Shown here in pieces: positions 8,912-58,116 of a stretch of DNA of 64,000 nucleotides. The first letter of the stretch is position 1. The number at the start of each line of letters is the position of its first letter. The position numbers and the translations under genes are program-made. The notes below the pieces were generated by a model. The model worked only from the letters and a program-made list of their open reading frames with translations, was not told where the DNA came from and did not search any database. Where the stretch lies: assembly GCA_038257155.1 (NCBI GenBank), contig JBBSJP010000015.1, positions 31,542 to 95,541 on the forward strand, given 5' to 3'. This stretch comes from Lysobacterales bacterium. Its GTDB lineage: Bacteria > Pseudomonadota > Gammaproteobacteria > Xanthomonadales > Xanthomonadaceae.

Positions 8912-9057
8912 GGCGGACAGTGTAACCGCGGCCTGGGGCAGGGCGCGGCATCACGCCGCAGTGCATCCGACAACAGCAGCGCGTTCGCGATGTGCGTTCC
9001 CTTGAACGTGACGCGGTGTGGTCGGCAATCCTTCCAGGTACCGGGCCCGCGGAATCC

Positions 9058-13451: not shown

Positions 13452-13756
13452 GGGAAAGCTCCGGAAATCTGCGCGTCGAACGTCGACGCAACCGTGAAGT
13501 CAGTGTCATCAAATGGGGAGTAGGCAGGAATGGGTAAAAACCCCTGCCCCATCAGGGCGGCTTTGCCCAGCGCTAAAATGGAACAGATGGTCGATCCGAA
13601 GGCCGAAACGGGCGGCCGCGCGGTGTCGCCTGGGGGGAAAACCTCAGCTGGGCGGGTATTTCCGCCTAGCGCGCCACGGAATGTGGGCGAACCACTCGAC
13701 GCGCGCGCGACAGGGCTCTAAGGTTGAGAAGTATTTCTTCCTGGTTGGCACTTGTC

Positions 13757-14608: not shown

Positions 14609-15492
14609 AGCAACCGGCCGCTCGGCTGGTCATCCATCTGCGCGGAGAGGCCAGCCAGAGTCACCTGCTTGACGATGATTGCCGGCATCACTTGGGACGC
14701 GACGCCGGGGTCGACATCAGCATCCCGCACCCATCCGTGTCACGTCGGCACGCCGCCCTTGAGCGACGCGATGGCCTCTGGTACCTGCTGGACCTGGGAT
14801 CCAAGAACGGCACCTTAATCGACGGCCGCCCGGTCCAAGAGACGCCCCTGGATGCGCCGACCTGGTTTTCAGTGGGCGACGTGTTCTGTGAATTCCAGCC
14901 ACTCAGCGCAACCGCACTGACCCGTATTCGCGAAACCGCCGCCACCCGACGGCATTCGTCGGCAGCCTGGCACGCTCGCGTCAATGTGCGACGCGGCATC
15001 GAGACCCTGCTTGCGGATGTCCTTGAGGGCGCCATCGACATCGCACAATGCCGTAGAGGCGTACTTCTGACTGGCATCAAGTCGGGCTCGCTCGACGTGG
15101 CTGCGGCTTTTTCACCGCCCGGAGAGGATCCTGCAGCCGCGCCGGAATGGAGCCGGACTGCCGTGGAGCGGGTCCTGCGTGAACGACGCCCTGTCTACCT
15201 GTCGAGTCAATCCGATCGCGCCTGGCTCAAGAACGCAGCTTCGGTCGTGGGGCAGGGGCTACGCTCACTGGCCTGCCTTCCGCTACTTTGCAGCGGGCGC
15301 CTGCTGGGCGTGCTCTATGTCGACACCGATGAATCGGCCAAAGTGTTCGATCAGCTGGATGTCGAACTGCTCGATGCGTTCGCCGAACGGGCCGCGTCCG
15401 CATTGGCACTGGCCGATATTGAACACACACTGCGCGCTATCGAGGCCGATGCCCTGATCGTCGCGCCGACGCCCAAGGGAATGCAGACGTGA
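14605..15492 (+). CDS. FHA domain - GAF domain protein
   Basis: N-terminal FHA signature (GRDAGVDISIPHPSVSRRHAALERRDGLWYLLDLGSKNGTLIDGRPV). C-terminal GAF-like fold (LACLPLLCSGRLLGVLYVDTDE). 4-nt overlaps on both sides. Confidence 0.75.
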   Translation: MKQPAARLVIHLRGEASQSHLLDDDCRHHLGRDAGVDISIPHPSVSRRHAALERRDGLWYLLDLGSKNGTLIDGRPVQETPLDAPTWFSVGDVFCEFQPLSATALTRIRETAATRRHSSAAWHARVNVRRGIETLLADVLEGAIDIAQCRRGVLLTGIKSGSLDVAAAFSPPGEDPAAAPEWSRTAVERVLRERRPVYLSSQSDRAWLKNAASVVGQGLRSLACLPLLCSGRLLGVLYVDTDESAKVFDQLDVELLDAFAERAASALALADIEHTLRAIEADALIVAPTPKGMQT

Positions 15493-35234: not shown

Positions 35235-35476
35235 GCGGATTCCTACCGGTTGAGCGGCGGACTGCTGCCGCCATGGCCCCTGATTGACCCCGCCGATCAT
35301 AGTCCTGTCCCGCTGCCGGGTGGAGGCGAGGCAGTCCAGTCCACGCAGCGTCGGAACTTGCCGACCCTCGACTCGGGCACGAGCGACCAGCGGCGCGCCA
35401 AGGTGAACCGAAGACCGGAACCAAGCCCGTTGCGGTGCGTTTGTCTGCGTCCCCGATCTACTTTCGGATCGACGGA

Positions 35477-35646
35477 CCCTAGGAGCCTGCGCGGCGGAAG
35501 CAATCGAGGCGAAAGCGAGACTGCGCGAGAGCGGAGTTTCGACGATTCGCCGGCCTGTAGTGGTTCTACAGGCCAAGAATCGGCGGAATTCCGGGCCGCG
35601 CAGGCGCGGTTGCAGCCCGGTTGTCTTCTGCCGCGCAGGCTCCTAG
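35477..35646. other. Structured GC-rich element in the 5' leader of the beta-propeller gene (long-range inverted repeat plus internal hairpin)
   Basis: CCTAGGAGCCTGCGCGGCGG (35477-35496) is complementary to CCGCGCAGGCTCCTAGG (35630-35646). Internal hairpin GCCTGTAGTGGTTCTACAGGC at ~35552-35574. Confidence 0.4.
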
Positions 35647-40300: not shown

Positions 40301-42736
40301 GTTGAGCTGGTCCTGGTCGGTGAGTCGCTCGCTGCGCCGCGGCAGGCCTTCCAGGATGCGGATGGCGGCATCGTGCACGCCCTGCGCCTTGCGCTGGCGT
40401 TCGTCGAGCAGCGCCTGGCGCTGGCCCTCGAAGGCTTCCAGCACTTCCTCGCGCTTGGCCAGGATGTCGCCGAGGAACTGCTCGTGCTCGCCGAACTGGC
40501 TTTCCAGTTCTTCCAGTTGCACCAGCACGCGCGCCAGTTGTTCCTCGCAGGCTTCCGGCTCGCGTGCCTGCGACAGGGCGCTGGCGACACTCTGGCCAAA
40601 CAGCTGGAACTGCGCGCCGAACTGCGCCACGGCCTCCGATGAGCCGAGTGATTTGCGTCGTTGCTCGGCGCGCGCGCGGGCCTGGTTGAGGCGGGCATAC
40701 AGTGCCGAGATCGCCTCGACCACGCGGGTGCGTTCGGCCGCGTCTTCGACCGGCAGGCTGCCCATCAGGTTCGACAGCATGTCGAGATCGGAGCCCAGGT
40801 CAGCCAGGCCCTTGAGCGGCTCGCGCAGCTGACCACCGCTGCTGGCGGCCTGCGCCTTCGTATCCAGCGCAGTCAAACGGTCGCCGAGCGGTGTCAGCGC
40901 GGCGGGACTGGCGACGAAGCTGCCAGTGGCCTGGCCGGTGCGCTGCTGCGCCTCGAGCAACTCGGCCTCCATCGCGTCGATGGCGGCCACGTCGATGTAG
41001 CGGAAGTCGCGGATCGTCAGCAGGCGGCCGCGCAACGCGGCGATGCCGTTCAGCGCGTCGACGTAATCCTGCACCTTGTCCCAGCGCTCGGGCTGCAGCG
41101 ACTTCAGCAGTGCAGCCTGCTGCGTGCGCGCTTCAGTCAGGGCCTGCTCGGACTGACGCCGGATGCTGACGACTTTCTCGTACTCGTCGAGCACCTGTTC
41201 GCTGGTCGCGGCGATCTCGCGCACCAGGCTGGCGGCGCCCTGGCAGTTGCTGTCGTCGACCCAGTGGTGCAGGTCGAACAGGCGACGGGTCTCGGCCACC
41301 AGGCGCTCGAAGCGCTGCGCCGAGATGTCGGTCGATTCGATTTCGCGCGCCACGCCGAGCAGGTCGGACAGGCCGCGTACCAGTTCGGCATTGCCGATCT
41401 TGCCCATGAAGCTGGTGCGCGGCGGCTGGCGCGCGGCGAACTCTTCGGTGGTGAAGGGCGTTTGCCAGATCTGCATCGGATGCACGCGCGTGGCTTCGGC
41501 GCTCTCGGCGCTGAACACCACCATGCGGCCGTCCTCCATCATGGCGTAGCCATGCGCGAAGATCGGCGTCTGCAGGCGACGCTGGATCAGGTTGTAGGTG
41601 AACAGCGCGAAGCGGCCTTCCTCGGGCTCGTAGAACACGTACAGCACGTCTTCGCCATTCGGCGAACGCAGCACGCGCTTGAAACCCATGCCGTCCATCG
41701 AGCGTTCGAAGCGGCGGTACTCGCCGTTCTGCAGCACATAACCGCCGGGGAACACGATGCCGTGGTCTTCCGGCAACTGGATGCAGGCCGCGCCGATGGC
41801 ATCAATGCGCAACACGCTTTGCGTGATGCGGTTGTAGACCAGGTAGCGCCAGACCTCTTCGCGATAGGGCAGCACCCGCAGCAGGATGAGGCTGCCGACC
41901 TGGGCGAACTCGACGATCGCGTCGTCGAGCGACTGGGTCTTGTCGGCAACTGGCTCGCGGTACACGCCGAGGCCGTCTTCGGTGTTGTTCTCGACCTTGA
42001 CGGTGAGGTCGCCGGCAACGGTCTCGACGAACACGGTGTCGAGGATGTTCAGATGCGGGTGGCGGCCGTGCACCGCGTGCTCGCGCGTGCAGCGTGTCCA
42101 CTCGAAGTCATAGGCCGGCGGCGGCGCGATGTCGCGTTCGCCGCGGTTGTCGATGTAGCGGATCTGGCTGCCGTCGGACGAGACGTTCCAGCGAAACACG
42201 CGCACATCGGTCAGGCGCTCGCCGATCTGGAAGCTGGCCAGCAGCTTGCCCTGCCGCACCACCAGCTGCAGCAGGCGGGTGTGCTTGTAATAGGCGTACA
42301 GCTCGCGGAAATCGTTGCGGAAATCGGGCGCATCGAGAAAGCTGCCCGCGACCGGCACTGGCTCGCCTTCGAAGCCCTCGCCCTCCTCTTTCAGGCGATA
42401 GAGCGAGAACACATCCTCGACAACGGTTTCCTTCTTCAGCCCGATGAAGACGTTGTAGCCGAACAGCAGCAGATGCCCGACCTGCACGATATCGCGCGCC
42501 GCACAGTTGTTCTCGGTGCGCACCCGCAGCCGCCCGGCGACAGCCATCTCGCTGCTGCCGAACTCGGCCAGGCGCTGGGTGTTGAGCGCATCGACCACAC
42601 CCGCAAGCCGCGAGCCCTGTTCAACCAGGCGCTTGTGCAGCACTTCGTAAGCGCCACCTTCGGTGACGGCGCGGTCGACATTGCTGGTATCGGGGGTGGG
42701 GTTGGTCATGGGGCGAGTTTCAAACGTGTGAGACAT
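37340..42736 (-). CDS. Giant (1798 aa) protein with a single central AAA+-like P-loop ATPase module and extensive helical regions
   Basis: Uninterrupted 5.4-kb ORF. Walker A LISPPGYGKTTLMEYV, Walker B-like MLYVDDIQH, sensor-like VVMAGNP. Long helical Glu/Arg/Leu-rich stretches. No signal peptide. Confidence 0.85.
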   Translation of the reverse strand: MSHTFETRPMTNPTPDTSNVDRAVTEGGAYEVLHKRLVEQGSRLAGVVDALNTQRLAEFGSSEMAVAGRLRVRTENNCAARDIVQVGHLLLFGYNVFIGLKKETVVEDVFSLYRLKEEGEGFEGEPVPVAGSFLDAPDFRNDFRELYAYYKHTRLLQLVVRQGKLLASFQIGERLTDVRVFRWNVSSDGSQIRYIDNRGERDIAPPPAYDFEWTRCTREHAVHGRHPHLNILDTVFVETVAGDLTVKVENNTEDGLGVYREPVADKTQSLDDAIVEFAQVGSLILLRVLPYREEVWRYLVYNRITQSVLRIDAIGAACIQLPEDHGIVFPGGYVLQNGEYRRFERSMDGMGFKRVLRSPNGEDVLYVFYEPEEGRFALFTYNLIQRRLQTPIFAHGYAMMEDGRMVVFSAESAEATRVHPMQIWQTPFTTEEFAARQPPRTSFMGKIGNAELVRGLSDLLGVAREIESTDISAQRFERLVAETRRLFDLHHWVDDSNCQGAASLVREIAATSEQVLDEYEKVVSIRRQSEQALTEARTQQAALLKSLQPERWDKVQDYVDALNGIAALRGRLLTIRDFRYIDVAAIDAMEAELLEAQQRTGQATGSFVASPAALTPLGDRLTALDTKAQAASSGGQLREPLKGLADLGSDLDMLSNLMGSLPVEDAAERTRVVEAISALYARLNQARARAEQRRKSLGSSEAVAQFGAQFQLFGQSVASALSQAREPEACEEQLARVLVQLEELESQFGEHEQFLGDILAKREEVLEAFEGQRQALLDERQRKAQGVHDAAIRILEGLPRRSERLTDQDQLNAFFAGDPLVLKLRDLAERLRGLKDNVKADDVESRLKAARDQALRALRDRSELFDAGGETLRFGRHRFSVNRQELDLTLMPREDGLYLHLTGTDYLQALHDPELDAARDYWAVDLESESATLYRGEYLAGCVLEAAEAGSDGWSMSELERLALQPDGLQQRLRDFASARYREGYEKGIHDHDASLILSALLPLRAQAGSLRYAPDDRALALLGWSELINSHKQSATWPERARAARRMRELFGHGGGGLALRNELAQALEAFALERGLPLDGVHLKRAADYLQHELAAEHVQFHFSKYAAQLAKALRERLETAHAWHELQDTLKRLDGRLDARWNLLLGWLDALLGDTELGALRDYRNEAAALLLLGESLPNRIAQADLRTEVAGLLGVHARIQDGRLALALDDFEARFEHHRHAFLPGLKQYHAQRHARLERERESMRLGEFKPKPLTAFVRNRLISEVYLPIIGDNLAKQMGTVGEGKRSDLMGLLLLISPPGYGKTTLMEYVAHRMGLNFMKINGPALGHAVHSLDPAQAPDATAARELEKLNLALAMGNNTMLYVDDIQHTHPEFLQKFISLCDGTRRIEGVWQGKTRTFDLRGKKFCVVMAGNPYTESGEVFKIPDMLANRADVYNLGDVLGGMQEAFAMSYVEICLTSNPILAPLATRQMSDVYKLIAKAEGKAFSANELAHTYSAAEIGEIEAVLRRLMQVRDTVFRVNQQYIASAAQDDDYRTEPPFRLQGSYRNMNKLAEKLSPAMNDADIEQVLRDHYQGEAQLLTAGAEENLLKLAELLGRQTDVEKARWEQILRDYRRNKSMGGADSDVGVRVVGQLHDLVEGVRGLSSLGAAQGAQAETGQHVVARLDLLAQALRELADASTQRGAEPASADDVAANSEHWPALIDLLQRIASEQALARTFSRDTATESAMWLGGLRSALEVGFRPLVDEIRARNEGRGEQQKLLTTIATRLDLLISGLRDKAGGTPAPRKPAAK

Positions 42737-42748
42737 TCAAGCCCCTCT

Positions 42749-42840
42749 CCCGCCGGGAGAGGGGTTGGGGAGAGGGGCAAACGGAGCCCGAAGCTTTGGG
42801 CAAGTCCAGCCCCTCACCCCCGCCCCTCTCCCGTGGGGAG
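42749..42840. repeat. Pair of GC-rich hairpins sharing the stem CCCCTCTCC...GGAGAGGGG (REP-like)
   Basis: CCCCTCTCCCGCCGGGAGAGGGG at 42749-42771 and CCCCTCTCCCGTGGGGAGAGGGG at ~42818-42840, immediately after the giant gene's start. Confidence 0.65.
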
Positions 42841-42880
42841 AGGGGAGCGAAGCGGAACGGCCCAGCACCACTCCAGTTTC

Positions 42881-43051
42881 CCGTTCGTGGTGAGGAGCGA
42901 TCGAGGCATCCGCGCAGCGGATGACCGAGAGCGCGTCTCGAACCACATGCTGGATGGTTCGAGACGCCACCTCGTTCGGCCGCCAACGCGGCTGCGAGGC
43001 GCTGCGCGCCTTCGCGCTGCGCGCGCCTCGATGGCTCCTCACCACGAACGG
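42881..43051. repeat. Nested inverted-repeat element (MITE/REP-like) between flotillin and giant ATPase genes
   Basis: 26-bp terminal IR CCGTTCGTGGTGAGGAGCGATCGAGG (42881-42906) versus its complement at 43026-43051 (25/26 match). Inner palindrome GCGTCTCGAACCA...TGGTTCGAGACGC at ~42932-42969. Confidence 0.65.
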
Positions 43052-43105
43052 TTTATGGGGGAGGCTCATGGCAGCAGTTCAAGCAATCAAGAACCCAGCG
43101 CTCGC

Positions 43106-45064
43106 CTATTCCTCCCCACCCTTCTTCGGCACCTTGCGCTTGCCCTCATCCCCATCGCTCTTGCCCAGATACTTCGCCAACAAGTCCTGCACGATTGGAC
43201 TTTTGCCGGCAATGCCTTCGATCGCCTTGCCCACCGACAGCGACCTGGCAAAGGAATTGAAGAAGTCGCCCTCGCCGCCAACGATGTCGATCTTGGCCTT
43301 GGACAGCGCCGCCGACAGCACTTCGGCCTGTTCGCGTGCGATGTCCTTGCTGGCATCGATCGAGGCAATCGCCTGCTCGAAGTTCTTTTCGAGCTGCATG
43401 CGGAATTCCTCGTGGGTGCGGGCACCGTCGTCGAGCTTGGATAGCGCATCAAACTTCTCGGTGAGGCCCTTGGCCTCGGCCTGGAACTTCTGCAGCAGCA
43501 CATCGGCCTCGGCCGTGCCCTGCTTGCGCCAGGCCTCGGCCTTGGCTTCGGTGACGCGAGCCTGGGAAAGGCCCTTCTCCTGTTCGCCGCGCGCTTCAGC
43601 CATCAGTTGCTCTTCGAGCGACTTTGCTTTGGCCAGTCCCTCGCGTTCGGTCGCCGCGGCGCCAACCTCGCGCACCCGCGCATCGGCCAGGCCCGGCGCG
43701 GCGCGCTCGGCCTCGGTGCCTTCGGCCATCTTCTTCTTGCCCTCGGACTGCTTGCCTGCGGCTTCCAACTCGGCTTGCGCCAAGGTGGTGATCTCGATCG
43801 CCTTGTGCTTGGCCTTTTCCTCGTCGGCCTCGGCCTGCTTGACCTGGCGCACCAGTTCTTCTTCGGCCATCGCCTGGGCATTGAGGATCGCGACCTGCTT
43901 GGCGCGATCGGCAAAGGAAACTTCGCGAACTTCCTTGATGCGCTCCTCTTCCTGCGCCACGGATTTCTCCACCACGATGCGCTCGCGGATCACCCCGGCG
44001 ATGATCTGGCGCTGTTCTTCCAGGGCTTTTTCCTTTTCGATGCGCTGCAGCTCGACTTCACGTTCCCGGGCCACCTGCTCCAGGGCCTTGGCGCGGGCCA
44101 CCTTCTCGACTTCGATCACCACCGCGCGCTGACGGTTCTGCTGCGCCACTTCCACTTCGCGTTGGCGGTTCTCTTCGCGGATCTCGATGGTTTCCTGGGT
44201 CTGGATGCGGGCCTGCTCGGAACGCAGGCGCTCTTCCTCCTGAACCTTCTTGGTTTCGGCCTGTTCGCGCGCCTGGATGGTTTCGATCTCGCGCTTCTGG
44301 CGCGCCTCGGCGTCGGCCTGCTGGCGCTCCAGCGCCAGGGTCGCCTCGCGCGTCTCGACGTTCTTCTTCTTCATCGCCAGCTCTTCGTTGCGCTCGAGCT
44401 CGTTGGTGATGACGTTCTGCGCGGCGGTCAGCTCGGTGATCTTGCGGATGCCCTCGGCATCGAGGATGTTGTTGGGATCGAGCGAGGACTTCGGCGTCTG
44501 CTCCAGGTAGTCGATCGCCACGTCTTCCAGCACGTAGCCGTTCAGATCGTTGCCGATCACTTCCACGATGCGGTCGCGGAATTCCTGGCGGTTCTCGAAC
44601 AGCTTGACGAAGTCGATCTTCTTGCCGACCGTCTTCAGCGCCTCGGAGAACTTGGCATTGAACAGTTCGTTCACCGCGCCCTTTTCCGAGGCGCGATCCA
44701 CGCCGATCGCCTTGGCCACTTTCAGCACGTCCTGCTGGGTCTCATTGACGCGCAGGTAGAACGCCACCGTGATGTCGGCGCGCATATTGTCCTGGCAGAT
44801 CAGCCCATCCTTGCCGCGCCGGTCGACCTCCAGCGTGATCAGGGAGATCTTCATGAACTCCTTCTTGTAGACCACCGGGTACACCAGGGCGCCGGTGAAG
44901 TGCACCTTGGGAGTGGAAGACAGGTCGTTGACGATCAGCGCGGTGCCCTGCGGGACCTTGATGTAGAAGGCCTTGAACAGGGCGAACAGGCCCACGATCA
45001 CGACGACAACAACGCCAAGTCCGATCAGGAACGGCATCAGGAAGGCAAGATCCATGGCAAACAC
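43106..45064 (-). CDS. Flotillin-like SPFH/band-7 protein (YqiK-like) with extended coiled coil
   Basis: N-terminal TM hairpin (LAFLMPFLIGLGVVVVVIVGLFALF). SPFH domain (YIKVPQGTALIVNDLSSTPKVHFTGALVYPVVYKKEFMKISL...). ~350 aa EA/EQ/K-rich coiled coil. Confidence 0.85.
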   Translation of the reverse strand: MFAMDLAFLMPFLIGLGVVVVVIVGLFALFKAFYIKVPQGTALIVNDLSSTPKVHFTGALVYPVVYKKEFMKISLITLEVDRRGKDGLICQDNMRADITVAFYLRVNETQQDVLKVAKAIGVDRASEKGAVNELFNAKFSEALKTVGKKIDFVKLFENRQEFRDRIVEVIGNDLNGYVLEDVAIDYLEQTPKSSLDPNNILDAEGIRKITELTAAQNVITNELERNEELAMKKKNVETREATLALERQQADAEARQKREIETIQAREQAETKKVQEEERLRSEQARIQTQETIEIREENRQREVEVAQQNRQRAVVIEVEKVARAKALEQVAREREVELQRIEKEKALEEQRQIIAGVIRERIVVEKSVAQEEERIKEVREVSFADRAKQVAILNAQAMAEEELVRQVKQAEADEEKAKHKAIEITTLAQAELEAAGKQSEGKKKMAEGTEAERAAPGLADARVREVGAAATEREGLAKAKSLEEQLMAEARGEQEKGLSQARVTEAKAEAWRKQGTAEADVLLQKFQAEAKGLTEKFDALSKLDDGARTHEEFRMQLEKNFEQAIASIDASKDIAREQAEVLSAALSKAKIDIVGGEGDFFNSFARSLSVGKAIEGIAGKSPIVQDLLAKYLGKSDGDEGKRKVPKKGGEE

Positions 45065-45133
45065 TCCGAGGCGATGGACGAACAGTGGCGGCGGCGCCCT
45101 GCGGCGATGCCGTGAAGCAGGAAGTGAAACGGG

Positions 45134-45760
45134 TCAGGCGGCGTGCTTGGCGATCACGCGGTAGGCATTCTGCAGCGTCAGGTATTCCACTAGTACCACT
45201 TCGTCACCGCGTGAGAATTGGCCAGGGTCAGCGCGGACCTGCAGGACCAGTCCTGCACCGCCGTCCTCCAGATTCGCGGTTCCCTGCGAATCGGTGACAT
45301 GAGGGCTGCGCACGATGGCGATCTTGCCGAGCAGGGATTCGCTGTCGGTGGGCTTGAGCTTGGCAAATAACGGTGACAGCGGGCGCAGTGCCAGGCCGGT
45401 GATCGGCATGGCAACAACAACAGCGCCCAACAGCAGGCCGGAACCGAGGGCATAGCGCATCACTCCGGTGCCCAGGTGCTGCAGCAGGAACAGGTCGACG
45501 AAGTAGGTGAGCAGCCAGCCAAAAAATATGAAGCCGGTAGCGATCAAGGTCACCGGCACCCCATCCAGGCCCCATTTCATCAGCAGGCCGGCAACACCGC
45601 CAACATCCAGATCCATACCGTCCGGCATGGGCGCGAAATTCAGGATCTCCAGATCGATCAGGCCGATCATGGCCATCATCCAATAGATCACCGCCACCGC
45701 CAGCAGAACGCTGAAAACCACGGTGGGAAATGAAAGCGCGATTTGCAGGAACTCGTCCAT
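45134..45760 (-). CDS. YqiJ/NfeD-like inner-membrane protein (flotillin partner)
   Basis: Start MDEFLQIALSFPTVVFSVLLAVAVIYW. Multiple TM helices then a C-terminal OB-like segment (GKIAIVRSPHVTDSQGTANLEDGGAGLVLQVRADP...GDEVVLVEY). 69 bp upstream of the flotillin gene. Confidence 0.7.
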   Translation of the reverse strand: MDEFLQIALSFPTVVFSVLLAVAVIYWMMAMIGLIDLEILNFAPMPDGMDLDVGGVAGLLMKWGLDGVPVTLIATGFIFFGWLLTYFVDLFLLQHLGTGVMRYALGSGLLLGAVVVAMPITGLALRPLSPLFAKLKPTDSESLLGKIAIVRSPHVTDSQGTANLEDGGAGLVLQVRADPGQFSRGDEVVLVEYLTLQNAYRVIAKHAA

Positions 45761-45918
45761 GGTTCGAAGGCCCCCCGACGGCGTCTTTACGTTCCGAGAC
45801 AGCTGGAAGGATAGGCAATAGCGGCGCCGCGCGCCATGTCCCGGAGGGCAGGCTTGGTTTTCGGCTCGCCTGCCCCAAGAGATTTCGGTTACCCGTGGCT
45901 GAAACTGACTACCCATCC

Positions 45919-46169
45919 TCCGTTCGCACTGAGCGTAGCTGGCCGCAGGCCGGCGAAGTCGAAGTGCCTACCGCGTGTCCTTCGACTTCGGCCCCGCGGG
46001 CCTACGCTCAGGACGAACGGGTGTGGTTGGGCGGATGGGTGGTGCTGTCTGAGTCAATCTCTCCATGCCGTTCGCACTGAGCTTGGCTGGCCGCAGGCCG
46101 GCGAAGTCGAAGTGCCTGCCACGGGTCCTTCGACTTCGACCCCGCGGGCCTACGCTCAGGACGAACGGG
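45919..46169. repeat. Two tandem ~100-bp hairpin-forming repeat units (REP/MITE-like)
   Basis: Unit 1 at 45919-46022 and unit 2 at 46068-46169. Each has terminal IR CCGTTCGCACTGAGC(G/T)T.G...CTACGCTCAGGACGAACGG and inner IR GAAGTCGAAGTGCC...CTTCGACTTC. Confidence 0.8.
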
Positions 46170-46242
46170 CTGGCGAACAGGTGACGCCCCGCCGTTGTCT
46201 CGATACCATCGACCAAACCTCAACAAAGCCCTCGATAGCCCC

Positions 46243-46491
46243 ATGTCAGAAAGCCGCGACTACCTCGAGATGTCCTTCAAGTCGATCGAGTATTTCGCCA
46301 AGGACGGACGCCTGCATGCGCACGAGCTGGAGCAGCTCTACGCGCTGGCAATGCGCGATGGCAAGCTCGATGCCAATGAGGTGCGGGTGCTGAAGTCGGT
46401 GATCGATCGCATCCGCCCGGAGGAACTCGACGACGCGATGAAGGTGACGCTCGGTGAGATTACGCGCCGGCTCGGCAAGCCGGGCGGCTGA
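46243..46491 (+). CDS. Small hypothetical protein (possibly TerB-like helical)
   Basis: ATG 46243, 82 aa, MSESRDYLEMSFKSIEYFAKDGRLHAHELEQLYALAMRDGKLDANEVRVLKSVIDRI... Confidence 0.45.
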   Translation: MSESRDYLEMSFKSIEYFAKDGRLHAHELEQLYALAMRDGKLDANEVRVLKSVIDRIRPEELDDAMKVTLGEITRRLGKPGG

Positions 46492-51927: not shown

Positions 51928-52893
51928 ATGAACGAAAGCACGCACGATGGACAGGTTGTCGAGGCCGGGCGCACGCTTGCACAGGCGGTGATCCAGGATC
52001 GAATGGAGGTGCTCAAGCGGGGGGCCTCACCCGGCGTAACAATGGCGGCACCTGGCGGGGCAGTCACGCTGGAAGCTCGGTCCGTCGGACCCGCAGGCCG
52101 CATCGCCATGGCCGCGGCTCGTCCCCGCGGATACCTGATTGCGGAAGGCGACAGCTGGTTCGACTACCCGCGGTCCGACGTGCTGGATGTACTGGAAGAC
52201 GACCACGGTTATCGCGTGGAACGTTTGGCACACGGCGGGGACACAGTTGAAGACATGGCATTCAACGAGTCGCAGATCGGCGCACTGGCAAAGCGCTTCG
52301 AGCGACTTCTTCAGGACCGCAGGCCGGTCGATGCGGTACTTCTGTCGGGCGGCGGCAACGACATCGCCGGCAACGAGTTCAGCATGTTGTTGGAGCACGC
52401 CAGTTCGGGCAAGGCAGCCATCAACGCGGTAATCGCCGAGCAGGTGATCTATGGGCGCATCCGGGACGCCTTCCTTCGGATCATCGGTACTGTGAACGCG
52501 ATCTCCGAAGCCTACCTGGATCGTCATGTGCCCATCATCCTCCACGGCTATGGCTATCCCGTGGCCGACGGTCGCGGGTTCCTGGGAGGCGCCTGGTTTC
52601 TGCCCGGTCCATGGCTTGGCCCAGGCTTCGAACGCAAGGGGATTAGCGATTCGATTGTCCGCCGCCAGGTTATGCGAAGCCTGATGGACGACTTCAACGC
52701 AATGCTCTCTGCTCTGACGAGCGTGCCCGATCTCGATGGCGTGGTGAGTTACGTCGACCTTCGCGATCTGCTGTCCGACGACCTGGCGAACTATCGTGAC
52801 GATTGGGCGAACGAATTGCACCCGACGCAGTCAGGTTTTCGTCGAGTGGCGGCAAGCATCGCAGCCGAAGTTGAACGACGCACCGAAAGCTGA
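51928..52893 (+). CDS. SGNH/GDSL-family hydrolase without signal peptide
   Basis: ATG 51928. GDSx block LIAEGDSWFDYP, GGGND block (VLLSGGGNDIAGNEF), C-terminal DxxH-like block (WANELHPT). 321 aa. Confidence 0.7.
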   Translation: MNESTHDGQVVEAGRTLAQAVIQDRMEVLKRGASPGVTMAAPGGAVTLEARSVGPAGRIAMAAARPRGYLIAEGDSWFDYPRSDVLDVLEDDHGYRVERLAHGGDTVEDMAFNESQIGALAKRFERLLQDRRPVDAVLLSGGGNDIAGNEFSMLLEHASSGKAAINAVIAEQVIYGRIRDAFLRIIGTVNAISEAYLDRHVPIILHGYGYPVADGRGFLGGAWFLPGPWLGPGFERKGISDSIVRRQVMRSLMDDFNAMLSALTSVPDLDGVVSYVDLRDLLSDDLANYRDDWANELHPTQSGFRRVAASIAAEVERRTES

Positions 52894-52969
52894 TCGCCGC
52901 TGCGTCCTGACGAAAGCCTTGCAGTTCTTTCGTCCAGTTCCATCACCCAGACGCTGACTGGACACTGCG

Positions 52970-55318
52970 ATGAAGAAGCGAGCCACTCCGAAAGACAAGC
53001 CCGCAAAACCGGTCGTTGCGAAATCGACCGCTGGCAAGGTTTCTGGCAAGGCAGCACCGGCCAAGAAGACAGCGGGAAGGATTGCGCCCAAGCCGTTCAG
53101 CGGCGTCAAGGGCTTGCAGAAGCAGGCGATAGTCGAGGCGTTGGCGAGCCAATTGCTCAAAGCCTCCAAAGCCATAGTCCAGACCTTGGCGGTCGCGGGT
53201 CGAAAGAGCGACGTGCGTTCGTTGGTGGTCGGGCCGCTCGACATGGCGAGGTTTGGCAAGGACGCGCGACTGGTCCTGAACCTGGATTACCGAATCCTGC
53301 CGTCGGGCAAAGTGAGCCTTGAGGATTCCGAGTCTCTGCGTCCGTCGGTACAGGTGCTTGAGGGAGACGATTGGAGCGACCTTCCCGCCCAGGTGACGTC
53401 ATATCTTGCTGACACTGCGGCCTCGTCTCCGGTGTTCGCGATGTCCGATGTCGATTCTGGCGTTGAGGCCGAGTCCGACGATACCCGCGAATCCATGCCC
53501 TTGCCCGCGGTGGCAAAGCTTTGTACCCGTATCGGTACCAGTGCGCCGGCCACGATCGAGCAACTGGTAACCTCCGATGTGGCGGTGGCCGCGTCGATGG
53601 ATCCGCGCCTTCAGCTGGTGATGCTCAATCGTCGCAGCGGCAAGCACTCCGCCGCGACGTCCTCGACCGGCGAGGGCGAAGTTGCTGTGATCGCGAAAGT
53701 CACGGATGCAGATGCTTGGATCGAAACGGATGATGTATTCACGGGTGCCGATCTTGGCCCGGCACCCGACGGCGCACACATAGTGACCGCACGGATTCCG
53801 ATCCGGCGGATCGCGGAGATTCGGCGCCTGCCCTTCGTCCAGAGTTTGAAAGCCTCGTATCCCGTTCGCGGGCAGCTGAGAGCGACCCTCAGCGCCATGG
53901 ACGCGTCGTCGCGGGCACTCGGGCCGCGCGATCCTGACGGCGGCGCTGGGGTTGTCATCGGGATAGTGGACTTCGGCGGTGATTTCGCGCACCGCAACTT
54001 CCGTCATGTCGATGGTACAACGCGGCTGCTGGCCTTGTGGGATCAGAGCGGTGAGTCCAACGCCGACAGCCCCTTCGGCTACGGTCGCGTCTTCTGGCCA
54101 GACCAGATCGACGCGGCACTGTCCACGCCACATCCTCACTCGGCCTTGGGATATCGCCCGGAAGCCCTGGCGCATGGCACGCACGTGATGGACATTGCGG
54201 GCGGCAACGGAGAGGGAACGGGATTGCCAGGCCTTGCGCCAAAGGCTGACCTCATCTTCGTGGAAGCGGCTGCGTCCGATGTGGAATGGGAGGGACCGGA
54301 TGGTGTCGGCCAACACTTCGGCGATTCGGTGCAGATACTGGAAGCGGTACGCTGGATCTTCGATCAGGCGGGTGACCGGCCCTGCGTGGTCAACCTCAGC
54401 CTGGGCACGAACGGTGGCCCGCACGACGGAACCTCCCTGGTAGAAATCGGGCTGGACGCGATGTTGGGCGAGGCACCCAATCGAGCCATCGTGGTCTCTG
54501 CGGGCAACGCCCAGGAGGACGGCGTGCATGCGATGGACACGATTCCTGCCGAGGGTCAGTACGACCTGCACTGGCGAGTCGATCTGCCAGGCGAATGCGA
54601 ACTCGAGCTGTGGTACCCGGGCGCGGAGCGATTGACTGCCAGCCTGATCGCCCCGAATGGACAGGAGTTGCTGCAGGTCGCGCCGGGCGATTCCCGATCC
54701 TTGACCACGCCGGGTGGCAAACCGGCGGTTTTCGCTGCCAACCGTTTGCATGATCCCAACAACGGCGACAACCTCATCGGGATCTGGCTCTCCGGAGGTT
54801 TGCCTGCGGGGCAATGGACACTCAGGCTGACGTCTTCTTCAACGCGGACTGTCGCGTTCCATGCATGGATCGAGCGCAATGACGAGGCGCAGGCGAGCTT
54901 CGTCAATCCAACGGTCTCGCACCTGCTGGGCTCGATTTCGACTGGCCGGAACACCCTCGTGGTTGGATCTTTCGATGCGCACAAGAAGGCCTTGCCGATC
55001 TCGCGTTTTTCCGGCTCAGGGCCCACCCGCGATGGGCGAGAGAAGCCGGAGCTCTCCGCGCCCGGCCACAATGTGTCGGCAGCCCGCTCGCGAACCCGTA
55101 CTGGCCTCACCCGAATGTCAGGCACCAGCATGGCAGCGCCGGCCGTTTCCGGACTGGCAGCTCTGGTGCTTGCGAAAGCCGCGCGAGTGGGACAATCGCT
55201 CTCGGCGGCTGAGCTTGGAAGGCAGGTGCTCGCCAACCTCGCGAAGCACCCGCAGGTGGCTGCCAACGCCTGGCACCCACAGTTTGGTGCCGGCCTTGCC
55301 TCCGGCGACGCCGTCTGA
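52970..55318 (+). CDS. S8 subtilisin-family serine peptidase with Lys/Ala/Pro-rich N-terminal tail; no signal peptide
   Basis: Catalytic triad regions VVIGIVDFGGD (Asp), ALAHGTHVMDIAGG (His), SGTSMAAPAVSGLAALV (Ser). N-terminus MKKRATPKDKPAKPVVAKSTAGKVSGKAAPAKKTAGRIAPKP. Confidence 0.85.
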   Translation: MKKRATPKDKPAKPVVAKSTAGKVSGKAAPAKKTAGRIAPKPFSGVKGLQKQAIVEALASQLLKASKAIVQTLAVAGRKSDVRSLVVGPLDMARFGKDARLVLNLDYRILPSGKVSLEDSESLRPSVQVLEGDDWSDLPAQVTSYLADTAASSPVFAMSDVDSGVEAESDDTRESMPLPAVAKLCTRIGTSAPATIEQLVTSDVAVAASMDPRLQLVMLNRRSGKHSAATSSTGEGEVAVIAKVTDADAWIETDDVFTGADLGPAPDGAHIVTARIPIRRIAEIRRLPFVQSLKASYPVRGQLRATLSAMDASSRALGPRDPDGGAGVVIGIVDFGGDFAHRNFRHVDGTTRLLALWDQSGESNADSPFGYGRVFWPDQIDAALSTPHPHSALGYRPEALAHGTHVMDIAGGNGEGTGLPGLAPKADLIFVEAAASDVEWEGPDGVGQHFGDSVQILEAVRWIFDQAGDRPCVVNLSLGTNGGPHDGTSLVEIGLDAMLGEAPNRAIVVSAGNAQEDGVHAMDTIPAEGQYDLHWRVDLPGECELELWYPGAERLTASLIAPNGQELLQVAPGDSRSLTTPGGKPAVFAANRLHDPNNGDNLIGIWLSGGLPAGQWTLRLTSSSTRTVAFHAWIERNDEAQASFVNPTVSHLLGSISTGRNTLVVGSFDAHKKALPISRFSGSGPTRDGREKPELSAPGHNVSAARSRTRTGLTRMSGTSMAAPAVSGLAALVLAKAARVGQSLSAAELGRQVLANLAKHPQVAANAWHPQFGAGLASGDAV

Positions 55319-55392
55319 GACTGAATCCTTGCTGGCCGCGGAAATTGCACCTGCGTTCGGGGGCGCGTAACGTGGTGCCTGAGGTGACCTGC

Positions 55393-55653
55393 ATGCCCAT
55401 TGATCTTGCCCAACTGATCCTGAGTGATAGTGATACGGAGTCCTCGCCGAGGCTTGGCAGCGGGCGTTTTCATGCCGTGCTGCGACTCCATCACGGCGAG
55501 TCCGTGCCCGAATATGTGCACGTTCGCAGCAAGATTGCCGAAGAATTGTTAACCATCGATTTTTCCGCAGAGGATCTGGATCGCATCACGAATGATCCAC
55601 GGGTGATTTCGGTCGCCCTGGCCAAGCCACTGCAGGCGTTCTCCGAAGGCTGA
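55393..55653 (+). CDS. Small protein resembling a subtilisin propeptide / I9 inhibitor, encoded separately
   Basis: ATG 55393. 86 aa ending ...EELLTIDFSAEDLDRITNDPRVISVALAKPLQ, an I9-like beta-alpha-beta pattern. 74 bp downstream of the S8 gene. Confidence 0.45.
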   Translation: MPIDLAQLILSDSDTESSPRLGSGRFHAVLRLHHGESVPEYVHVRSKIAEELLTIDFSAEDLDRITNDPRVISVALAKPLQAFSEG

Positions 55654-55904: not shown

Positions 55905-56768
55905 TCAAGGCGGGTCAGCCACCACAGTGTACGGCCGGTCGGGACTGGGCCAGTCTTCCTCACGGTAGCGCAGTGCTTCGAGCGCCTCATGCGCTGCGTT
56001 CAACTCGTTTTCCAACCCGCAGATACGCTCGACCGCGGCACTCACGGATGCGGCTGCTTCCAGCGCCTTGTCGAGAAGAATTTGCACGTCCGTTGATTGC
56101 ACGGCATCAACGCGAAATTCGGCATCGCCGTGGCGCAGGCCCGTCAGGCTCCGCACCAACATCGCGACGTCGCGTCCGCAGTTCCAGAAACCGCCGTCCA
56201 CGCGTCCGATCGTGTCGATATCCACCAGTGTGCCCGGCCAGTCCGGAATCAGGTGGGCCAGGAATTCGAGGCGGTGGACCAGAAACAGGGAGCGGACATC
56301 GCCCTCGCTCTTGAGCAGTGTTCTGGCGATTTCATCGAGGAGAGAGCGGATCGTCAAGGAAGCGAAGCTGACCTCGTTGGAAGCCAAGGCCAGCTTGATC
56401 AGCGCGTTGCGGGACGCCAACAGTCGCTCGATCTCCTGCCGCTGTTCCGACCATCGTTTGGCCGTCAGCGCGATGGCGGCGCGACCCGCCGCGTCTGGCT
56501 GACGCCACTTGGCCAAGCCTGACCCTTCCGGTTCGACAAGCGCCGCCATTCGCGCGTCGATTCGATCGCGACGGGACTCAAGCGCTTCCATCGCCTCTTC
56601 GTCGCCTTCTGCGGCTTGGCGAGCCTCCTTCTCCAGATGCATCAGGTGGTAGTGAACTTCATGAAGTCCGGCGTCCTGATCGCTGCCAGGTGAGCAGGCA
56701 AGCAAGGCGAGACACAGCAGGCAGGTCACGAGGCGACGGACGCCAGGCACTGACACTTCCAACTTCAT
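55905..56768 (-). CDS. Hypothetical lipoprotein (paralog A)
   Basis: Lipobox LLCLALLACS. Helical protein. Confidence 0.6.
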   Translation of the reverse strand: MKLEVSVPGVRRLVTCLLCLALLACSPGSDQDAGLHEVHYHLMHLEKEARQAAEGDEEAMEALESRRDRIDARMAALVEPEGSGLAKWRQPDAAGRAAIALTAKRWSEQRQEIERLLASRNALIKLALASNEVSFASLTIRSLLDEIARTLLKSEGDVRSLFLVHRLEFLAHLIPDWPGTLVDIDTIGRVDGGFWNCGRDVAMLVRSLTGLRHGDAEFRVDAVQSTDVQILLDKALEAAASVSAAVERICGLENELNAAHEALEALRYREEDWPSPDRPYTVVADPP

Positions 56769-57586
56769 GGCGTGGTGCTCCGTTCCGCATTCGAAGTTGA
56801 AGCAATGAGGCGCTCCACGCCAGCATCGACGGACTCGCGCGAGTCATGCATGGCGGGCATCCAGGGCGCCGAGTCCAGGATCGTGCCGATCAGGGGCACG
56901 ATCTGTCGGTGTTCGGCCAGCACCTCAGCCAGGGCGGCTCGCGACCTGGGTCCGCTGATCTGCCGCAGCCCGCGCTCTTCGTCGCCGCTTTCCAGTGCCG
57001 GCAGCAGCATGCCGAGGATGGTCCAGCTTCGCTCCAGTCCCCAGTGGTGGCCGTCGGTTCCACGGATCTCGCCGGTGCGAATGTCGACGAAGTAGGCGGT
57101 CAGCGACTTTGCCATTCTGGCGAGTTCCATGGCCGCGAAGATCTGCCGTGGTTCACCCTGCTCGTGCAGCAGTTGATTGACCAATTCATGCGACGAGTAT
57201 TCGAGCCGTTGCAGGGCTTTCGTCGCCGTATCGCAGGCAGCCGCGAGGGCGATCAGGTCGGACCTCCTGGCCAGCAGAGCGTCGACATGCAATCGAACAG
57301 CCTTCCATTGCAGCTCAAGGTCAGCAGGGCCCATGGCGGGGAATGACTTTGCCAACGCCCATTGCAGATCATCGGCATCGGGCGACCGCACCTGGCCAGC
57401 GAGCAACGACTCTATCCGCTCGCGCCGCAAGGGCAGCGCTCGCAGGGCTGCCTCATCGCCAAGGCTTGCGTCGTGCACTTCCTGCTTCAGACGCAACAAC
57501 TGGTAGCGCAGTTCGCCGATCTCGGGACTTCGGTCGGGGTGCGGTGCACAGCCTGTCAGCGACAAGCCAAGCAAAAACCAGAGCAT
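56765..57586 (-). CDS. Hypothetical lipoprotein (paralog B; start 57586 or 57670)
   Basis: Lipobox MLWFLLGLSLTGC. Shares architecture and motifs with the downstream paralog (LKQEVHDASLGDEAALRALPLRRERIESLLAGQV vs LEKEARQAAEGDEEAMEALESRRDRIDARMAALV). 4-nt overlap with it. Confidence 0.6.
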   Translation of the reverse strand: MLWFLLGLSLTGCAPHPDRSPEIGELRYQLLRLKQEVHDASLGDEAALRALPLRRERIESLLAGQVRSPDADDLQWALAKSFPAMGPADLELQWKAVRLHVDALLARRSDLIALAAACDTATKALQRLEYSSHELVNQLLHEQGEPRQIFAAMELARMAKSLTAYFVDIRTGEIRGTDGHHWGLERSWTILGMLLPALESGDEERGLRQISGPRSRAALAEVLAEHRQIVPLIGTILDSAPWMPAMHDSRESVDAGVERLIASTSNAERSTTP

Positions 57587-57810
57587 GTTGGCCAGATTGG
57601 CGCGCGCGAGCGTGTACAGGGGCGGCAGTTCGACGACTGGCGTACGCGAAAGTCCGTTCCTGTCAGTCATGCAATTCGTGCCTCCAATATCGCTTGGGCG
57701 GACCAGGGCGCTGGGCGCGCTACCGCACAGATGCGGCCCGCATGTCAGTCCATGATTTGTCGACGATGCCGCTGGTGGGTGCAGTGTCGCCGCCGTACCC
57801 GGAGACCGCA

Positions 57811-58116
57811 ATGCGCAAAGTTTTGCTCATTCCGCTGTTGATTCTCATCCCGCTTTCCGGAGTGCAGGCGCTGTCGAGCAGTGGCACCACGCCGGGCGCC
57901 AGCGTGCTGCATGGCGGGCTGGCTCGATGGAGCAGCGCTGAGGTGCAGGAGTGCGATATCCACGACCAGAACACCAATGCTGTCGCCATTCTCGGTGACC
58001 CAGCGCGACTTGCGAGCATCGGTGAGACAGCACCGCAACGGCCGTCTGCGGAAGTCGGTGTGCTCAAGTCCGAAGCCGAGCGCGTCGCAGCCCAGGACGT
58101 TTGCGACAACGAGTGA
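57811..58116 (+). CDS. Small secreted hypothetical protein
   Basis: ATG 57811. Signal peptide MRKVLLIPLLILIPLSGVQA. 101 aa. Confidence 0.5.
   Translation: MRKVLLIPLLILIPLSGVQALSSSGTTPGASVLHGGLARWSSAEVQECDIHDQNTNAVAILGDPARLASIGETAPQRPSAEVGVLKSEAERVAAQDVCDNE

Follow-up and report, generated by a model that had tools for sequence, protein, structure and literature searches.

The window, i.e., the whole 64,000-nucleotide stretch of Lysobacterales DNA that was analysed, carries on its forward (+) strand three co-oriented genes, which encode an SGNH/GDSL esterase of 321 amino acids (51928..52893), a Csp-like S8 subtilase of 782 amino acids (52970..55318), and a small protein of 86 amino acids (55393..55653). 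The intergenic gaps measure 76 and 74 bp, in agreement with what the sequence-only reading of this DNA had stated, and a terminator-like site is absent from both. The SGNH gene starts with the ATG at position 51928, which is preceded by AGGAG and is also the start used in public gene calls. The S8 ORF begins at the first start codon past an in-frame stop, so that a hidden N-terminal extension upstream does not exist, while the small ORF is preceded by the Shine-Dalgarno sequence GAGGTG, located 6 nt upstream of its start. In the window, flanking defence genes, mobility genes, and tRNA genes are all absent and the GC content is only slightly below that of the upstream flank. The window is not an obvious defence island. 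PADLOC returned nothing on the trio beyond a generic S8 match.

The SGNH protein, which is the proposed latent effector, matches the Pfam family Lipase_GDSL_2 (PF13472) with an E-value of 8e-10 and a score of 39.9 bits (cut-off 32.9). Its AF2 model (pLDDT 88) has the SGNH fold, and the Foldseek matches are GDSL esterases. Invariant residues are S76 (motif GDSWF), G141-N144 (GGGND), and N295, E296, and H298 (NELHP), so that, in addition to Pfam match and fold, the block I Ser (S76), the block III Asn (N144), and the block V His (H298) of SGNH/GDSL enzymes are present. Three positions before the block V His, Asn is found instead of Asp, a substitution that is also reported for a lipase of Streptomyces rimosus (PMC10779480). 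The family comprises 557 representatives of 50%-identity clusters at E<=1e-30. The N-terminus is formed by a family-conserved helix (residues 3-32; 51934..52023), which is modelled with a pLDDT of 87-98 and in which G14, A18, and R25 are shared by 90% or more of the sequences. It is connected to the core by a variable linker (residues 33-67; 52024..52128), which is a candidate cleavage region. In the AF2 model, residues 33-54 of this linker are non-helical coil and a short helix at residues 55-62 is confident; the 10-residue blocks over residues 31-50 average pLDDT values of 70 and 53. Length and sequence of the linker vary by SGNH clade, tracking the class of the partner protease. In fusions of a caspase (Peptidase_C14) with an SGNH domain (P0245 and P0261), the match to the family profile begins only at about position 37-57, and these proteins therefore appear to be devoid of the N-terminal helix.

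The second protein of the trio matches Peptidase_S8 (PF00082) with an E-value of 6.5e-29. Its best sequence match in the PDB is CspB (4i0w, E 1.3e-28), and the target-normalised TM-score obtained with Foldseek is 0.82 to CspB and about 0.8 to CspC and CspA, ranging from 0.77 to 0.82 over the entries 4i0w, 6mw4, 9pr8, and 9pr9. The residues D334, H402/H405, N513, and S720 are invariant, with the catalytic triad being invariant in 51 homologs. Judged from sequence and model, the enzyme is a catalytically intact CspB-like subtilase with an N-terminal prodomain of its own. It starts with a disordered, Lys/Ala/Pro-rich tail (residues 1-51; 52970..53122; pLDDT <50); many homologs possess a similar basic tail and some a Zn-ribbon instead. 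Then follows a helix with a small beta-rich region (residues 51-137; 53120..53380), for which AF2 gives a helix at 51-76 and strands across 84-137 with pLDDT values of about 55-67. This region is confined to a subset of homologs of about 775 amino acids and may represent a regulatory or sensor part; no Pfam match and no recognised sensor domain were found in the N-terminal 200 or so residues. The internal prodomain (residues ~209-300; 53594..53869) has the order beta-alpha-beta-beta-alpha-beta, with strands and helices over residues 237-300 modelled at pLDDT >90. Its conservation begins at MDPRLQL, and the whole AF2 model aligns with the prodomain-containing chains of CspC and CspA over 577-601 columns. 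A linker (residues 302-319; 53873..53926; pLDDT <50), which is a candidate autoprocessing region, leads to the catalytic domain (residues 325-782; 53942..55315), as delineated by the PDB match, AF2, and Foldseek. The latter domain contains a jellyroll-type insert (residues 520-635; 54527-54874).

The 86-amino acid protein has no match in Pfam, NCBIfam, or PADLOC, and a profile search of PDB sequences with its family found nothing. It had been described from the sequence as a stand-alone propeptide-like protein, and this description is borne out by the alignment of the family with residues 200-322 of the S8 protease, comprising the cognate prodomain (hhalign probability 90.9%, E 1.1e-6, 65 columns). 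Among 59 long-ORF matches of the small-protein HMM, the same N-terminal region of an S8 protein was hit in every case checked. The small ORF lies directly 3' of the S8 gene in 71 of 80 Csp-like S8 loci, which are spread, at 47-57% identity, over about ten phyla (Proteobacteria, Acidobacteriota, Cyanobacteria, Actinomycetota, Bacteroidota, Bacillota, Deinococcota, Chloroflexota, Verrucomicrobiota, and Planctomycetota); the pair is also found on plasmids and in a conjugative-type region carrying a T4SS. On this sequence evidence, the 86-amino acid protein is a free-standing paralog of the S8 prodomain that is co-inherited with the protease across phyla. The two proteins also co-evolve, as indicated by a mirror-tree comparison, in which the pairwise distances of the small proteins and of the S8 catalytic domains correlate with a Spearman rho of 0.43, a value reached in none of 500 permutations. 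The small protein evolves faster, its mean identity being 31% versus 55% for the S8 catalytic domain.

The S8/small-protein pair is mostly a free-standing two-gene cassette, and its recurrent neighbours are mainly ordinary housekeeping or regulatory genes, so that the pair is not clearly enriched in defence islands. Lipolytic partners occur at part of the loci: PLDc_2 at 7-9 of them (L014 and L015, the closest relatives, are among these), an alpha/beta-hydrolase at three, and a patatin-like protein at one. Within 8 kb, all 80 Csp-like S8 loci lack an SGNH gene; consequently, the exact combination of SGNH and Csp-like S8 rests on the window and, possibly, on L088.

From the side of the SGNH gene, association with proteases is frequent. 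About 30 of 85 SGNH loci, and 15 of the 25 with at least 1.2 kb available on both sides, have an adjacent same-strand gene for a CHAT, S8, C25-like, or trypsin protease; the flanks of SGNH homologs also include CHAT genes with astacin as well as TIR/STAND genes. TPR-S or astacin domains are present on partner proteases of other SGNH clades, and TIR-STAND partners are found at further loci. When 33 SGNH proteins were arranged in a neighbour-joining tree, genes linked to CHAT, C25, and trypsin proteases fell into one clade per class, whereas those linked to S8 were distributed over one main clade, the clade of the window, and a few isolated branches. Together with the caspase fusions, this shows that members of the SGNH family habitually adjoin, co-diversify with, or are fused to proteases of five different classes. 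At least six loci (L098, L105, L132, L136, L140, and L169) combine SGNH with a non-orthologous S8 protease of 408-460 amino acids and an ORF of 77-105 amino acids, and three of these six small ORFs give weak matches to the Fervidolysin prodomain. Taking into account these loci, where the S8 belongs to a different clade, and the S8/small-ORF pair in 71 of 80 independent genomes, the arrangement of the trio exceeds chance. In the window's own SGNH clade, there are four other members. L088 is the closest relative (68% identity), and its SGNH gene is followed by the start of a K-rich gene resembling the N-termini of Csp-like S8 proteins. L098, which also has an AbiJ domain in its surroundings, continues with an S8 gene, and L006 with a remnant of such an S8, situated between CBASS and Wadjet, with BrxR also being present. 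At the fourth, L089, a TIR-STAND gene follows and pYEATS is found in the vicinity. The sequence-only reading had related the genes to lipase/protease pairs of toxin or conflict modules; from the SGNH side, this idea is supported by the protease linkage of the family and the defence-type surroundings of some relatives, with the caveat of the 80 SGNH-free loci of the Csp-like S8 pair.

The interpretation we put forward, to which about an even chance is assigned, is that the trio constitutes a cytoplasmic conflict module, in which the protease releases a latent SGNH effector and a free-standing prodomain mimic exerts regulation. By analogy, its role would likely be abortive-infection-type defence or a related addiction function. 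At rest, both its own prodomain and the small mimic thereof would keep the S8 protease inactive, with the mimic expected to bind to the catalytic domain in the manner of an I9-type propeptide. A trigger, possibly sensed via the variable N-terminal 200 residues of S8, would free the protease; alternatively, this would result from loss of the fast-evolving small protein. The freed S8 would cut the SGNH protein in the variable linker behind the conserved N-terminal helix, and this cleavage would unlock an esterase/lipase activity damaging the cell via membrane or envelope esters. The place of this effector would be filled by the downstream-encoded PLD-family phospholipase in the closest S8 relatives. 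SGNH cleavage, toxicity, S8 inhibition, and phage defence are all predictions.

Since most S8 and GDSL enzymes characterised from bacteria are secreted, the two enzymes might be ordinary exported nutrient-scavenging hydrolases, whose signal peptides are hidden by mis-called start codons. Export was examined by a crude hydropathy scan (maximum 10-mer Kyte-Doolittle value) with three exported proteins of the window as controls. The maxima are 1.26 for SGNH, 1.59 for S8, and 1.55 for the small protein versus 2.2-3.05 for the controls, and a signal-like hydrophobic N-terminus was found in none of the three proteins. Values above 2.2 were obtained for none of the 120 SGNH homologs and for six of the 120 S8 homologs; in these six, the hydrophobic stretch is Ala-rich and mostly located deep inside the protein, away from the N-terminus, so that a signal-like N-terminus occurs in effectively 0 of 120 S8 homologs as well. 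The S8 ORF cannot be extended upstream, and a 45-codon extension of the SGNH gene is not signal-like, with the homologs beginning level with the ATG at 51928. The scavenger explanation is thus already largely refuted and would have only a vanishingly small probability. That neither enzyme has a recognisable signal peptide had been noted before and agrees with the scan of both enzymes and of about 120 homologs each, in which no Sec/Tat signal came up on either; the suggested cytoplasmic or non-classical localisation of the hydrolase pair is supported by these N-termini. Non-classical export is presupposed if S8 and/or SGNH were interbacterial or anti-eukaryotic toxins and the small protein an immunity factor protecting the producer by protease inhibition. 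A small cognate inhibitor encoded immediately 3' of the protease would be in keeping with toxin-immunity gene order, as would its fast evolution, a TcA-like toxin component encoded upstream at one locus, and the occurrence of the pair on plasmids and in the T4SS-carrying region. Not only is a signal peptide not found, but also PAAR, RHS, LXG, CDI, and T6SS/T7SS genes were not seen among the annotated flanking genes; moreover, the protease retains its own inhibitory prodomain, and the SGNH partners are CHAT, caspase, and TIR-STAND proteins of cytoplasmic type. Such a toxin pair is considered quite improbable.

Two further explanations were considered. The trio might consist of two independent cassettes lying side by side, i.e., a self-contained S8 protease with its inhibitor, perhaps an effector-independent protease or addiction module, and an unrelated SGNH gene, which either landed upstream by chance as a mobile solo gene or lost its original S8 partner. 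This is suggested by the SGNH-free Csp-like S8 loci, by the lack of a lipolytic neighbour at most S8 pairs, by solitary SGNH homologs such as L090, and by the different S8 clade that partners relatives of the window's SGNH. It is judged unlikely for four reasons. The SGNH and S8 genes share a strand, and the 76 bp that separate them contain no terminator. Of the four other members of the window's SGNH clade, three have an S8 gene (L098), the remnant of one (L006), or the start of a K-rich S8-like gene (L088) downstream of SGNH. The SGNH family, taken as a whole, is linked to proteases and in some cases fused to them. Finally, phospholipase D fills the corresponding partner position in the nearest S8 relatives. 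Alternatively, the protease could have a regulatory or developmental function outside of conflict, processing an SGNH or PLD zymogen in the course of differentiation or of envelope remodelling in hosts with a complex life style, comparable to the action of CspB on pro-SleC. The closest structures are indeed those of CspB, CspA, and CspC, i.e., germination proteases that retain a prodomain and activate the zymogen of a hydrolase, and many hosts are filamentous cyanobacteria, actinomycetes, Acidobacteriota, or rhizobia. The patchy distribution over about ten phyla at roughly 50% identity, including plasmid locations, points to horizontal spread rather than to a conserved developmental function, conserved developmental neighbours are absent, and the NCBIfam Csp scores lie far under the cut-offs; a developmental role is therefore deemed rather improbable.

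Concerning known systems, the S8 protease of the trio is comparable to the clostridial germination subtilases, in which a prodomain-retaining subtilase activates a hydrolase zymogen, the substrate of CspB being pro-SleC. CspB, CspA, and CspC have the closest catalytic domain by sequence and fold, including the jellyroll insert and the N-terminal prodomain. The identity, however, is only about 24%, and the NCBIfam models CspBA and CspC give 101.5 and 73.2 bits versus cut-offs of 1250 and 675, respectively. Further differences are the non-sporulating, high-GC, Xanthomonadales-like host, the K-rich N-terminal extension of the S8 protein, and the partners, with an SGNH esterase and a separately encoded copy of the prodomain in place of SleC. 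The small protein recalls the I9 family, to which belong the propeptides of subtilases and free-standing inhibitors resembling them, e.g., PBI2 of yeast and POIA1 of Pleurotus. Likewise a small separate polypeptide homologous to a subtilase prodomain, it would be expected to share the tight, product-like binding to the catalytic domain. Unlike I9 members, it remains below the threshold of PF05922 (the window protein is unmatched; three of 46 family members match, sub-threshold, with a best E-value of 0.039), its detectable kinship is only with the prodomain of its own S8 family, and it is the operon-encoded bacterial partner of a protease that also keeps its own prodomain. IetAS, composed of the S8 protease IetS and the ATPase IetA (Gao et al. 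2020), likewise has a cytoplasmic S8 protease in a defence context; identity with this system was rejected, given that the IetS models match weakly (19.4 and 13.3 bits) and that no IetA-like ATPase gene is adjacent to the trio.

Closest in overall organisation are the antiviral modules of linked protease and effector genes, whose effectors include MBL, alpha/beta-hydrolase, Pepco, EACC1, bacterial gasdermin, and others (Evans et al., bioRxiv 10.1101/2025.11.14.688446; Johnson et al., bioRxiv 10.1101/2021.06.07.447441). Common traits are an effector gene conserved beside a protease gene, effector clades with one protease class apiece (trypsin, caspase/CHAT, or S8) and phylogenetic congruence, and a broad, horizontal distribution; for the SGNH family, both recurrent protease adjacency and congruence between effector phylogeny and protease class were found. 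A hydrolase effector with an extra N-terminal segment and linker, removable by cleavage, is predicted for SGNH as well. In contrast to these modules, the S8 of the window is without a recognised sensor fusion, and there is a third component, the stand-alone prodomain paralog. SGNH/GDSL is outside the ten effector families surveyed by Evans et al. (10.1101/2025.11.14.688446), and a search of one literature library for SGNH in anti-phage contexts returned no description of a protease-linked or defence-module SGNH. If the proposed mechanism is true, the trio would represent a variant of the modules in which a protease unlocks a lethal enzyme, with an SGNH esterase as the effector and a prodomain mimic as the regulator.

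The SGNH esterase gene, the gene of a Csp-like (CspB-like) S8 subtilase and a small ORF follow one another at 51928-55653 of the window. The first gene, at 51928-52893 (+), encodes a 321-amino acid SGNH/GDSL hydrolase with a Pfam Lipase_GDSL_2 match; the second, at 52970-55318 (+), a 782-amino acid peptidase assigned to Pfam Peptidase_S8; and the third, at 55393-55653 (+), a protein of 86 amino acids for which Pfam, NCBIfam and PADLOC returned no match. The co-orientation of the genes and the gaps of 76 and 74 bp described in the sequence-only reading are confirmed by the ORFs and by the public annotation of a metagenomic contig of identical sequence, in which all three starts are the same, and the Pfam matches agree with its naming of the two enzymes. 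Shine-Dalgarno motifs precede the SGNH start (AGGAG) and the start of the small ORF (GAGGTG); the S8 ORF has no room for a hidden N-terminal extension, its start being the first one possible after a stop codon. A promoter/terminator scan revealed no terminator-like site in either gap.

By hydropathy, export signals are absent from the three proteins. Exported proteins of the window, three in number, served as positive controls in the scan and scored 2.2-3.05, whereas the SGNH protein, the S8 protein and the small protein scored 1.26, 1.59 and 1.55, respectively. None of 120 SGNH homologs exceeded 2.2, and in the six S8 homologs that did, the high score came from Ala-rich stretches, mostly deep inside the protein and not N-terminal. 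The N-termini of the SGNH family are basic, with a median net charge of +13 over the first 60 residues, and many S8 homologs carry N-terminal Lys/Ala/Pro-rich tails, while zinc ribbons are found in few.

Among solved structures, the S8 protein is most closely related to CspB, CspA and CspC, the germination subtilases of clostridia (E 1.3e-28). In the AlphaFold2 model, calculated from 51 homologs (pLDDT 76, pTM 0.75), a K-rich disordered tail (residues 1-51) is followed by a helix with a small beta-rich region, modeled at modest confidence (51-137), by a prodomain of beta-alpha-beta-beta-alpha-beta topology (about 209-300, pLDDT >90), by a low-confidence linker (302-319), and by the catalytic domain, which contains a jellyroll-type insert at 520-635. 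Foldseek gave target-normalised TM-scores of 0.77-0.82 against CspB, CspC and CspA, with alignments to prodomain-containing chains spanning 577-601 columns. Residues D334, H402/H405, N513 and S720 are invariant among the 51 homologs and, given this conservation, the enzyme should be active; the domain identities of both S8 and SGNH and the intactness of their catalytic residues are shown. PADLOC yielded a generic subtilase match and very weak IetS matches, nothing more, and no sensor domain was recognizable in the S8 protein. Among Csp-like S8 proteins it is the N-terminus that varies, and this may be the sensing part. A few Csp-like homologs (among P0002-P0120) start with a CxxC...CxxC zinc-ribbon-like segment that replaces the Lys-rich tail.

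In a word-indexed homolog search, the small ORF matched itself only, and a PDB-sequence profile search with its family found nothing. An ORF search near S8 homologs located a related ORF of 80-100 amino acids directly 3' of the S8 gene in 71 of 80 loci. These loci belong to about ten phyla and share 47-57% S8 identity; some lie on plasmids, and one is in a conjugative-type region that carries a T4SS. Of the nine without the small ORF, three break off at the S8 gene. The only case in 71 of a small prodomain-like ORF on the opposite strand, 44 bp past S8, is found in an Acidobacteriota locus (L022, 10021-10308). That the small protein is propeptide-like, as had been supposed, is borne out by a profile-profile alignment of its residues 19-83 to residues 231-303 of S8, which lie in the prodomain (probability 90.9%, E 1.1e-6), and the small-family HMM matched the same N-terminal region of S8 wherever this was checked (59 matches in long ORFs). 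With this alignment and no Pfam I9 or PDB match, the small protein is, as judged from sequence profiles, a stand-alone paralog of the cognate S8 prodomain; it scores below the Pfam I9 threshold and is I9-like in kind rather than a demonstrated member of that family. The two proteins are co-inherited, and the pairwise distances among the small proteins correlate with those among the S8 catalytic domains (Spearman rho 0.43, reached by 0 of 500 permutations), with the small protein evolving far faster (mean identity 31% versus 55%). A RiPP precursor was also considered and rejected, the conserved pattern being that of a folded domain with no hypervariable or Cys/Ser/Thr-rich core.

The surroundings of the S8 pair are mostly ordinary genes. 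A PLDc_2 phospholipase is encoded directly 3' in 7-9 loci, including those of the closest S8 relatives (L014, L015), an alpha/beta-hydrolase occurs nearby in three loci and a patatin-like protein in one; the remaining recurrent neighbors are generic (sigma-54 regulators, histidine kinases, LysR and ABC proteins). Since viral contigs gave a single good S8 match, at 41% identity, a phage-borne family was rejected. On a Bacillus cereus plasmid (NZ_CP053657.2; L099, 5998-9930), a second S8 of 491 amino acids and two hypothetical genes of about 75 amino acids come after the Csp-like S8, and close by are xerS and a gene for an EEP-family nuclease/phosphatase; this is a different elaboration of the S8 cassette. 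In a Niastella MAG (L075, 4305-7589), the same-strand gene immediately 5' of S8 encodes a TcA-type Tc-toxin TcB-binding domain.

The AF2 model of the SGNH protein is confident (pLDDT 88). At the N-terminus, residues 3-32 form a long helix (pLDDT 87-98) that is conserved on one face (G14, A18, R25). It is followed by residues 33-54, which are not helical and of which the first ~20 have the lowest confidence in the N-terminal region, and by a short confident helix (55-62), beyond which the SGNH core begins. The closest structural matches, generic GDSL esterases (E about 1e-5), do not allow a substrate to be inferred. The family is large, with 557 representatives of 50%-identity clusters found at E<=1e-30 in an exhaustive profile search, and its linkage to proteases is strong and varied. 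Among 85 loci encoding SGNH homologs, same-strand flanking genes, usually within 50 bp, code for CHAT proteases (often astacin plus CHAT), S8 proteins of 408-460 amino acids, C25-like cysteine proteases, trypsin-like proteases (in one case with a fused TPR-S sensor) and TIR/STAND proteins; of the 25 loci having at least 1.2 kb on both sides, 15 contain such an adjacent protease. In a neighbor-joining tree the SGNH clades match the class of the partner, and the SGNH linker varies in length and sequence by clade, tracking the partner protease; an adaptor domain common to the N-termini of SGNH and S8 was not found. Two of the top profile matches, P0245 (582 amino acids) and P0261 (918 amino acids), have a Peptidase_C14 caspase domain N-terminal to the SGNH domain, and P0269 (483 amino acids) has a weakly matching alpha/beta-hydrolase-like region in that position. 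The caspase-SGNH fusions align to the family profile only from position ~37-57 on and, for this reason, appear to lack the N-terminal helix.

The arrangement of SGNH, signal-less S8 and small prodomain-like ORF recurs, judging from gene order, as a design whose S8 has been exchanged for a non-orthologous one. In locus L098, whose SGNH is 66% identical to that of the window, a 408-amino acid S8 of another clade and a 77-amino acid ORF follow, with an AbiJ-domain gene upstream; in L105, L132, L136, L140 and L169, SGNH is joined by an S8 of 429-460 amino acids and an ORF of 100-105 amino acids. Three of these five small ORFs match the Fervidolysin prodomain model weakly (E 0.005-0.05), and resemblance to the N-terminus of their own S8 is likewise weak (E 3.5e-4, probability 37%); homology between the Csp-type and the short-S8-type small-ORF families was undetectable (hhalign probability <1%). 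In L006 (62% identity), the short S8 is reduced to its first 61 codons, between a CBASS operon and BrxR/Wadjet. This locus (1-16927 of Xanthomonadales MAG JADKCY010000002) is a defense island that comprises, in order, an 840-amino acid S8, patatin, a DncV-like cyclase, E1/E2 and JAB (CBASS operon), an RHH protein, SGNH with the short-S8 remnant, BrxR and JetABCD. The closest relative, L088 (68% SGNH identity), breaks off 23 codons into a downstream gene with a K-rich start like the N-termini of Csp-like S8 proteins.

A defense island is not evident in the window itself. The neighbors of the trio are genes for an ABC peptide transporter, two paralogous lipoproteins, LysM, GumN/TraB and HNH proteins; a tRNA scan of the window found none, and the GC dip is small. 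The two lipoprotein-like paralogs (55905-57811, -; 287 and 348 amino acids) overlap by 4 nt, share 32% identity (E 5e-21) and have the lipoboxes LLAC and LTGC, one of them with a weak PilJ N-terminal match; in none of the other loci examined did such genes adjoin S8 or SGNH. Farther upstream, 37340-46491 may be a membrane-stress or Ter-type cluster, comprising a 1798-amino acid DUF3686, DUF7902 and AAA ATPase gene (37340-42736, -), two large ORFs without Pfam match (43106-45064 and 45134-45916, both -) and a 98-amino acid ORF (46195-46491, +), TerB-like by eye and without Pfam match. A 1083-amino acid protein is encoded at 32325-35576 (-), its sole Pfam match being the hydrazine synthase alpha middle domain (E 1e-11).

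The best-supported reading, to which an even chance is given, is that the trio constitutes a cytoplasmic protease-effector module. The small protein would inhibit or regulate S8 in the manner of a prodomain, albeit as a separate protein; S8 would cut the linker of SGNH and thereby activate the esterase; and the outcome would be cell damage in a conflict setting, for example abortive infection. The main competing explanation, in which the SGNH gene and the S8 pair would be separate, independent cassettes, is considered unlikely. Viewed from S8, membership of SGNH in the unit looks doubtful, an SGNH gene being present within 8 kb in 0 of 80 Csp-like S8 loci; viewed from SGNH, with its protease neighbors, the opposite impression arises. 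The exact Csp-like S8 plus SGNH combination occurs in this window only, possibly also in L088.

Zymogen processing outside any conflict, as carried out by Csp and SleC, would suit the kinship of the S8 protein to the Csp subtilases and is improbable in view of the patchy occurrence of the S8 pair over about ten phyla and on plasmids; an exported toxin-immunity pair, which would account for a protease next to a putative inhibitor, is slightly more improbable still, given the lack of export signals. Ordinary secreted enzymes, which is what most characterized S8 and GDSL proteins of bacteria are, are essentially excluded; the Sec or Tat signal that would mark them was not found in either enzyme, as the sequence-only reading had held. 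Its idea of a cytoplasmic lipase/protease conflict module gains support from the comparative evidence on SGNH-protease linkage. The protease-effector reading can be widened, tentatively and with somewhat less confidence than for the trio itself: the SGNH family could be an unlisted, widespread class of protease-gated latent effectors that swaps CHAT/caspase, C25-like, trypsin and S8 partners, the S8 versions adding a stand-alone prodomain copy as separate inhibitor or trigger-sensitive "fuse", which would be a new regulatory principle.

If correct, a large esterase/lipase family would join, as the eleventh effector family, the protease-effector logic that is now recognized as a major theme in prokaryotic immunity. 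A duplicated prodomain acting as a separate protein would suggest a simple control device for cytoplasmic subtilases, and a defined role of the cassette of S8 and prodomain mimic in about ten phyla would annotate hundreds of genes now called "S8 family peptidase" or "hypothetical protein". The rewiring of zymogen-type effectors from one protease to another could be studied cleanly with the caspase-SGNH fusions and the exchanges of partner protease.

Compared with known systems, the S8 protein is not an orthologue of the Csp germination subtilases, its NCBIfam scores being far under the cut-offs. Linked protease-effector modules have been described with trypsin-, caspase- and S8-linked clades and phylogenetic congruence (bioRxiv 10.1101/2025.11.14.688446). 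SGNH is absent from the ten effector families of that paper, and among the papers searched none was found that ties SGNH to such modules. The SGNH proteins likewise fall into clades by protease class, and the protease-effector reading proposed for the trio matches the bacterial gasdermins.
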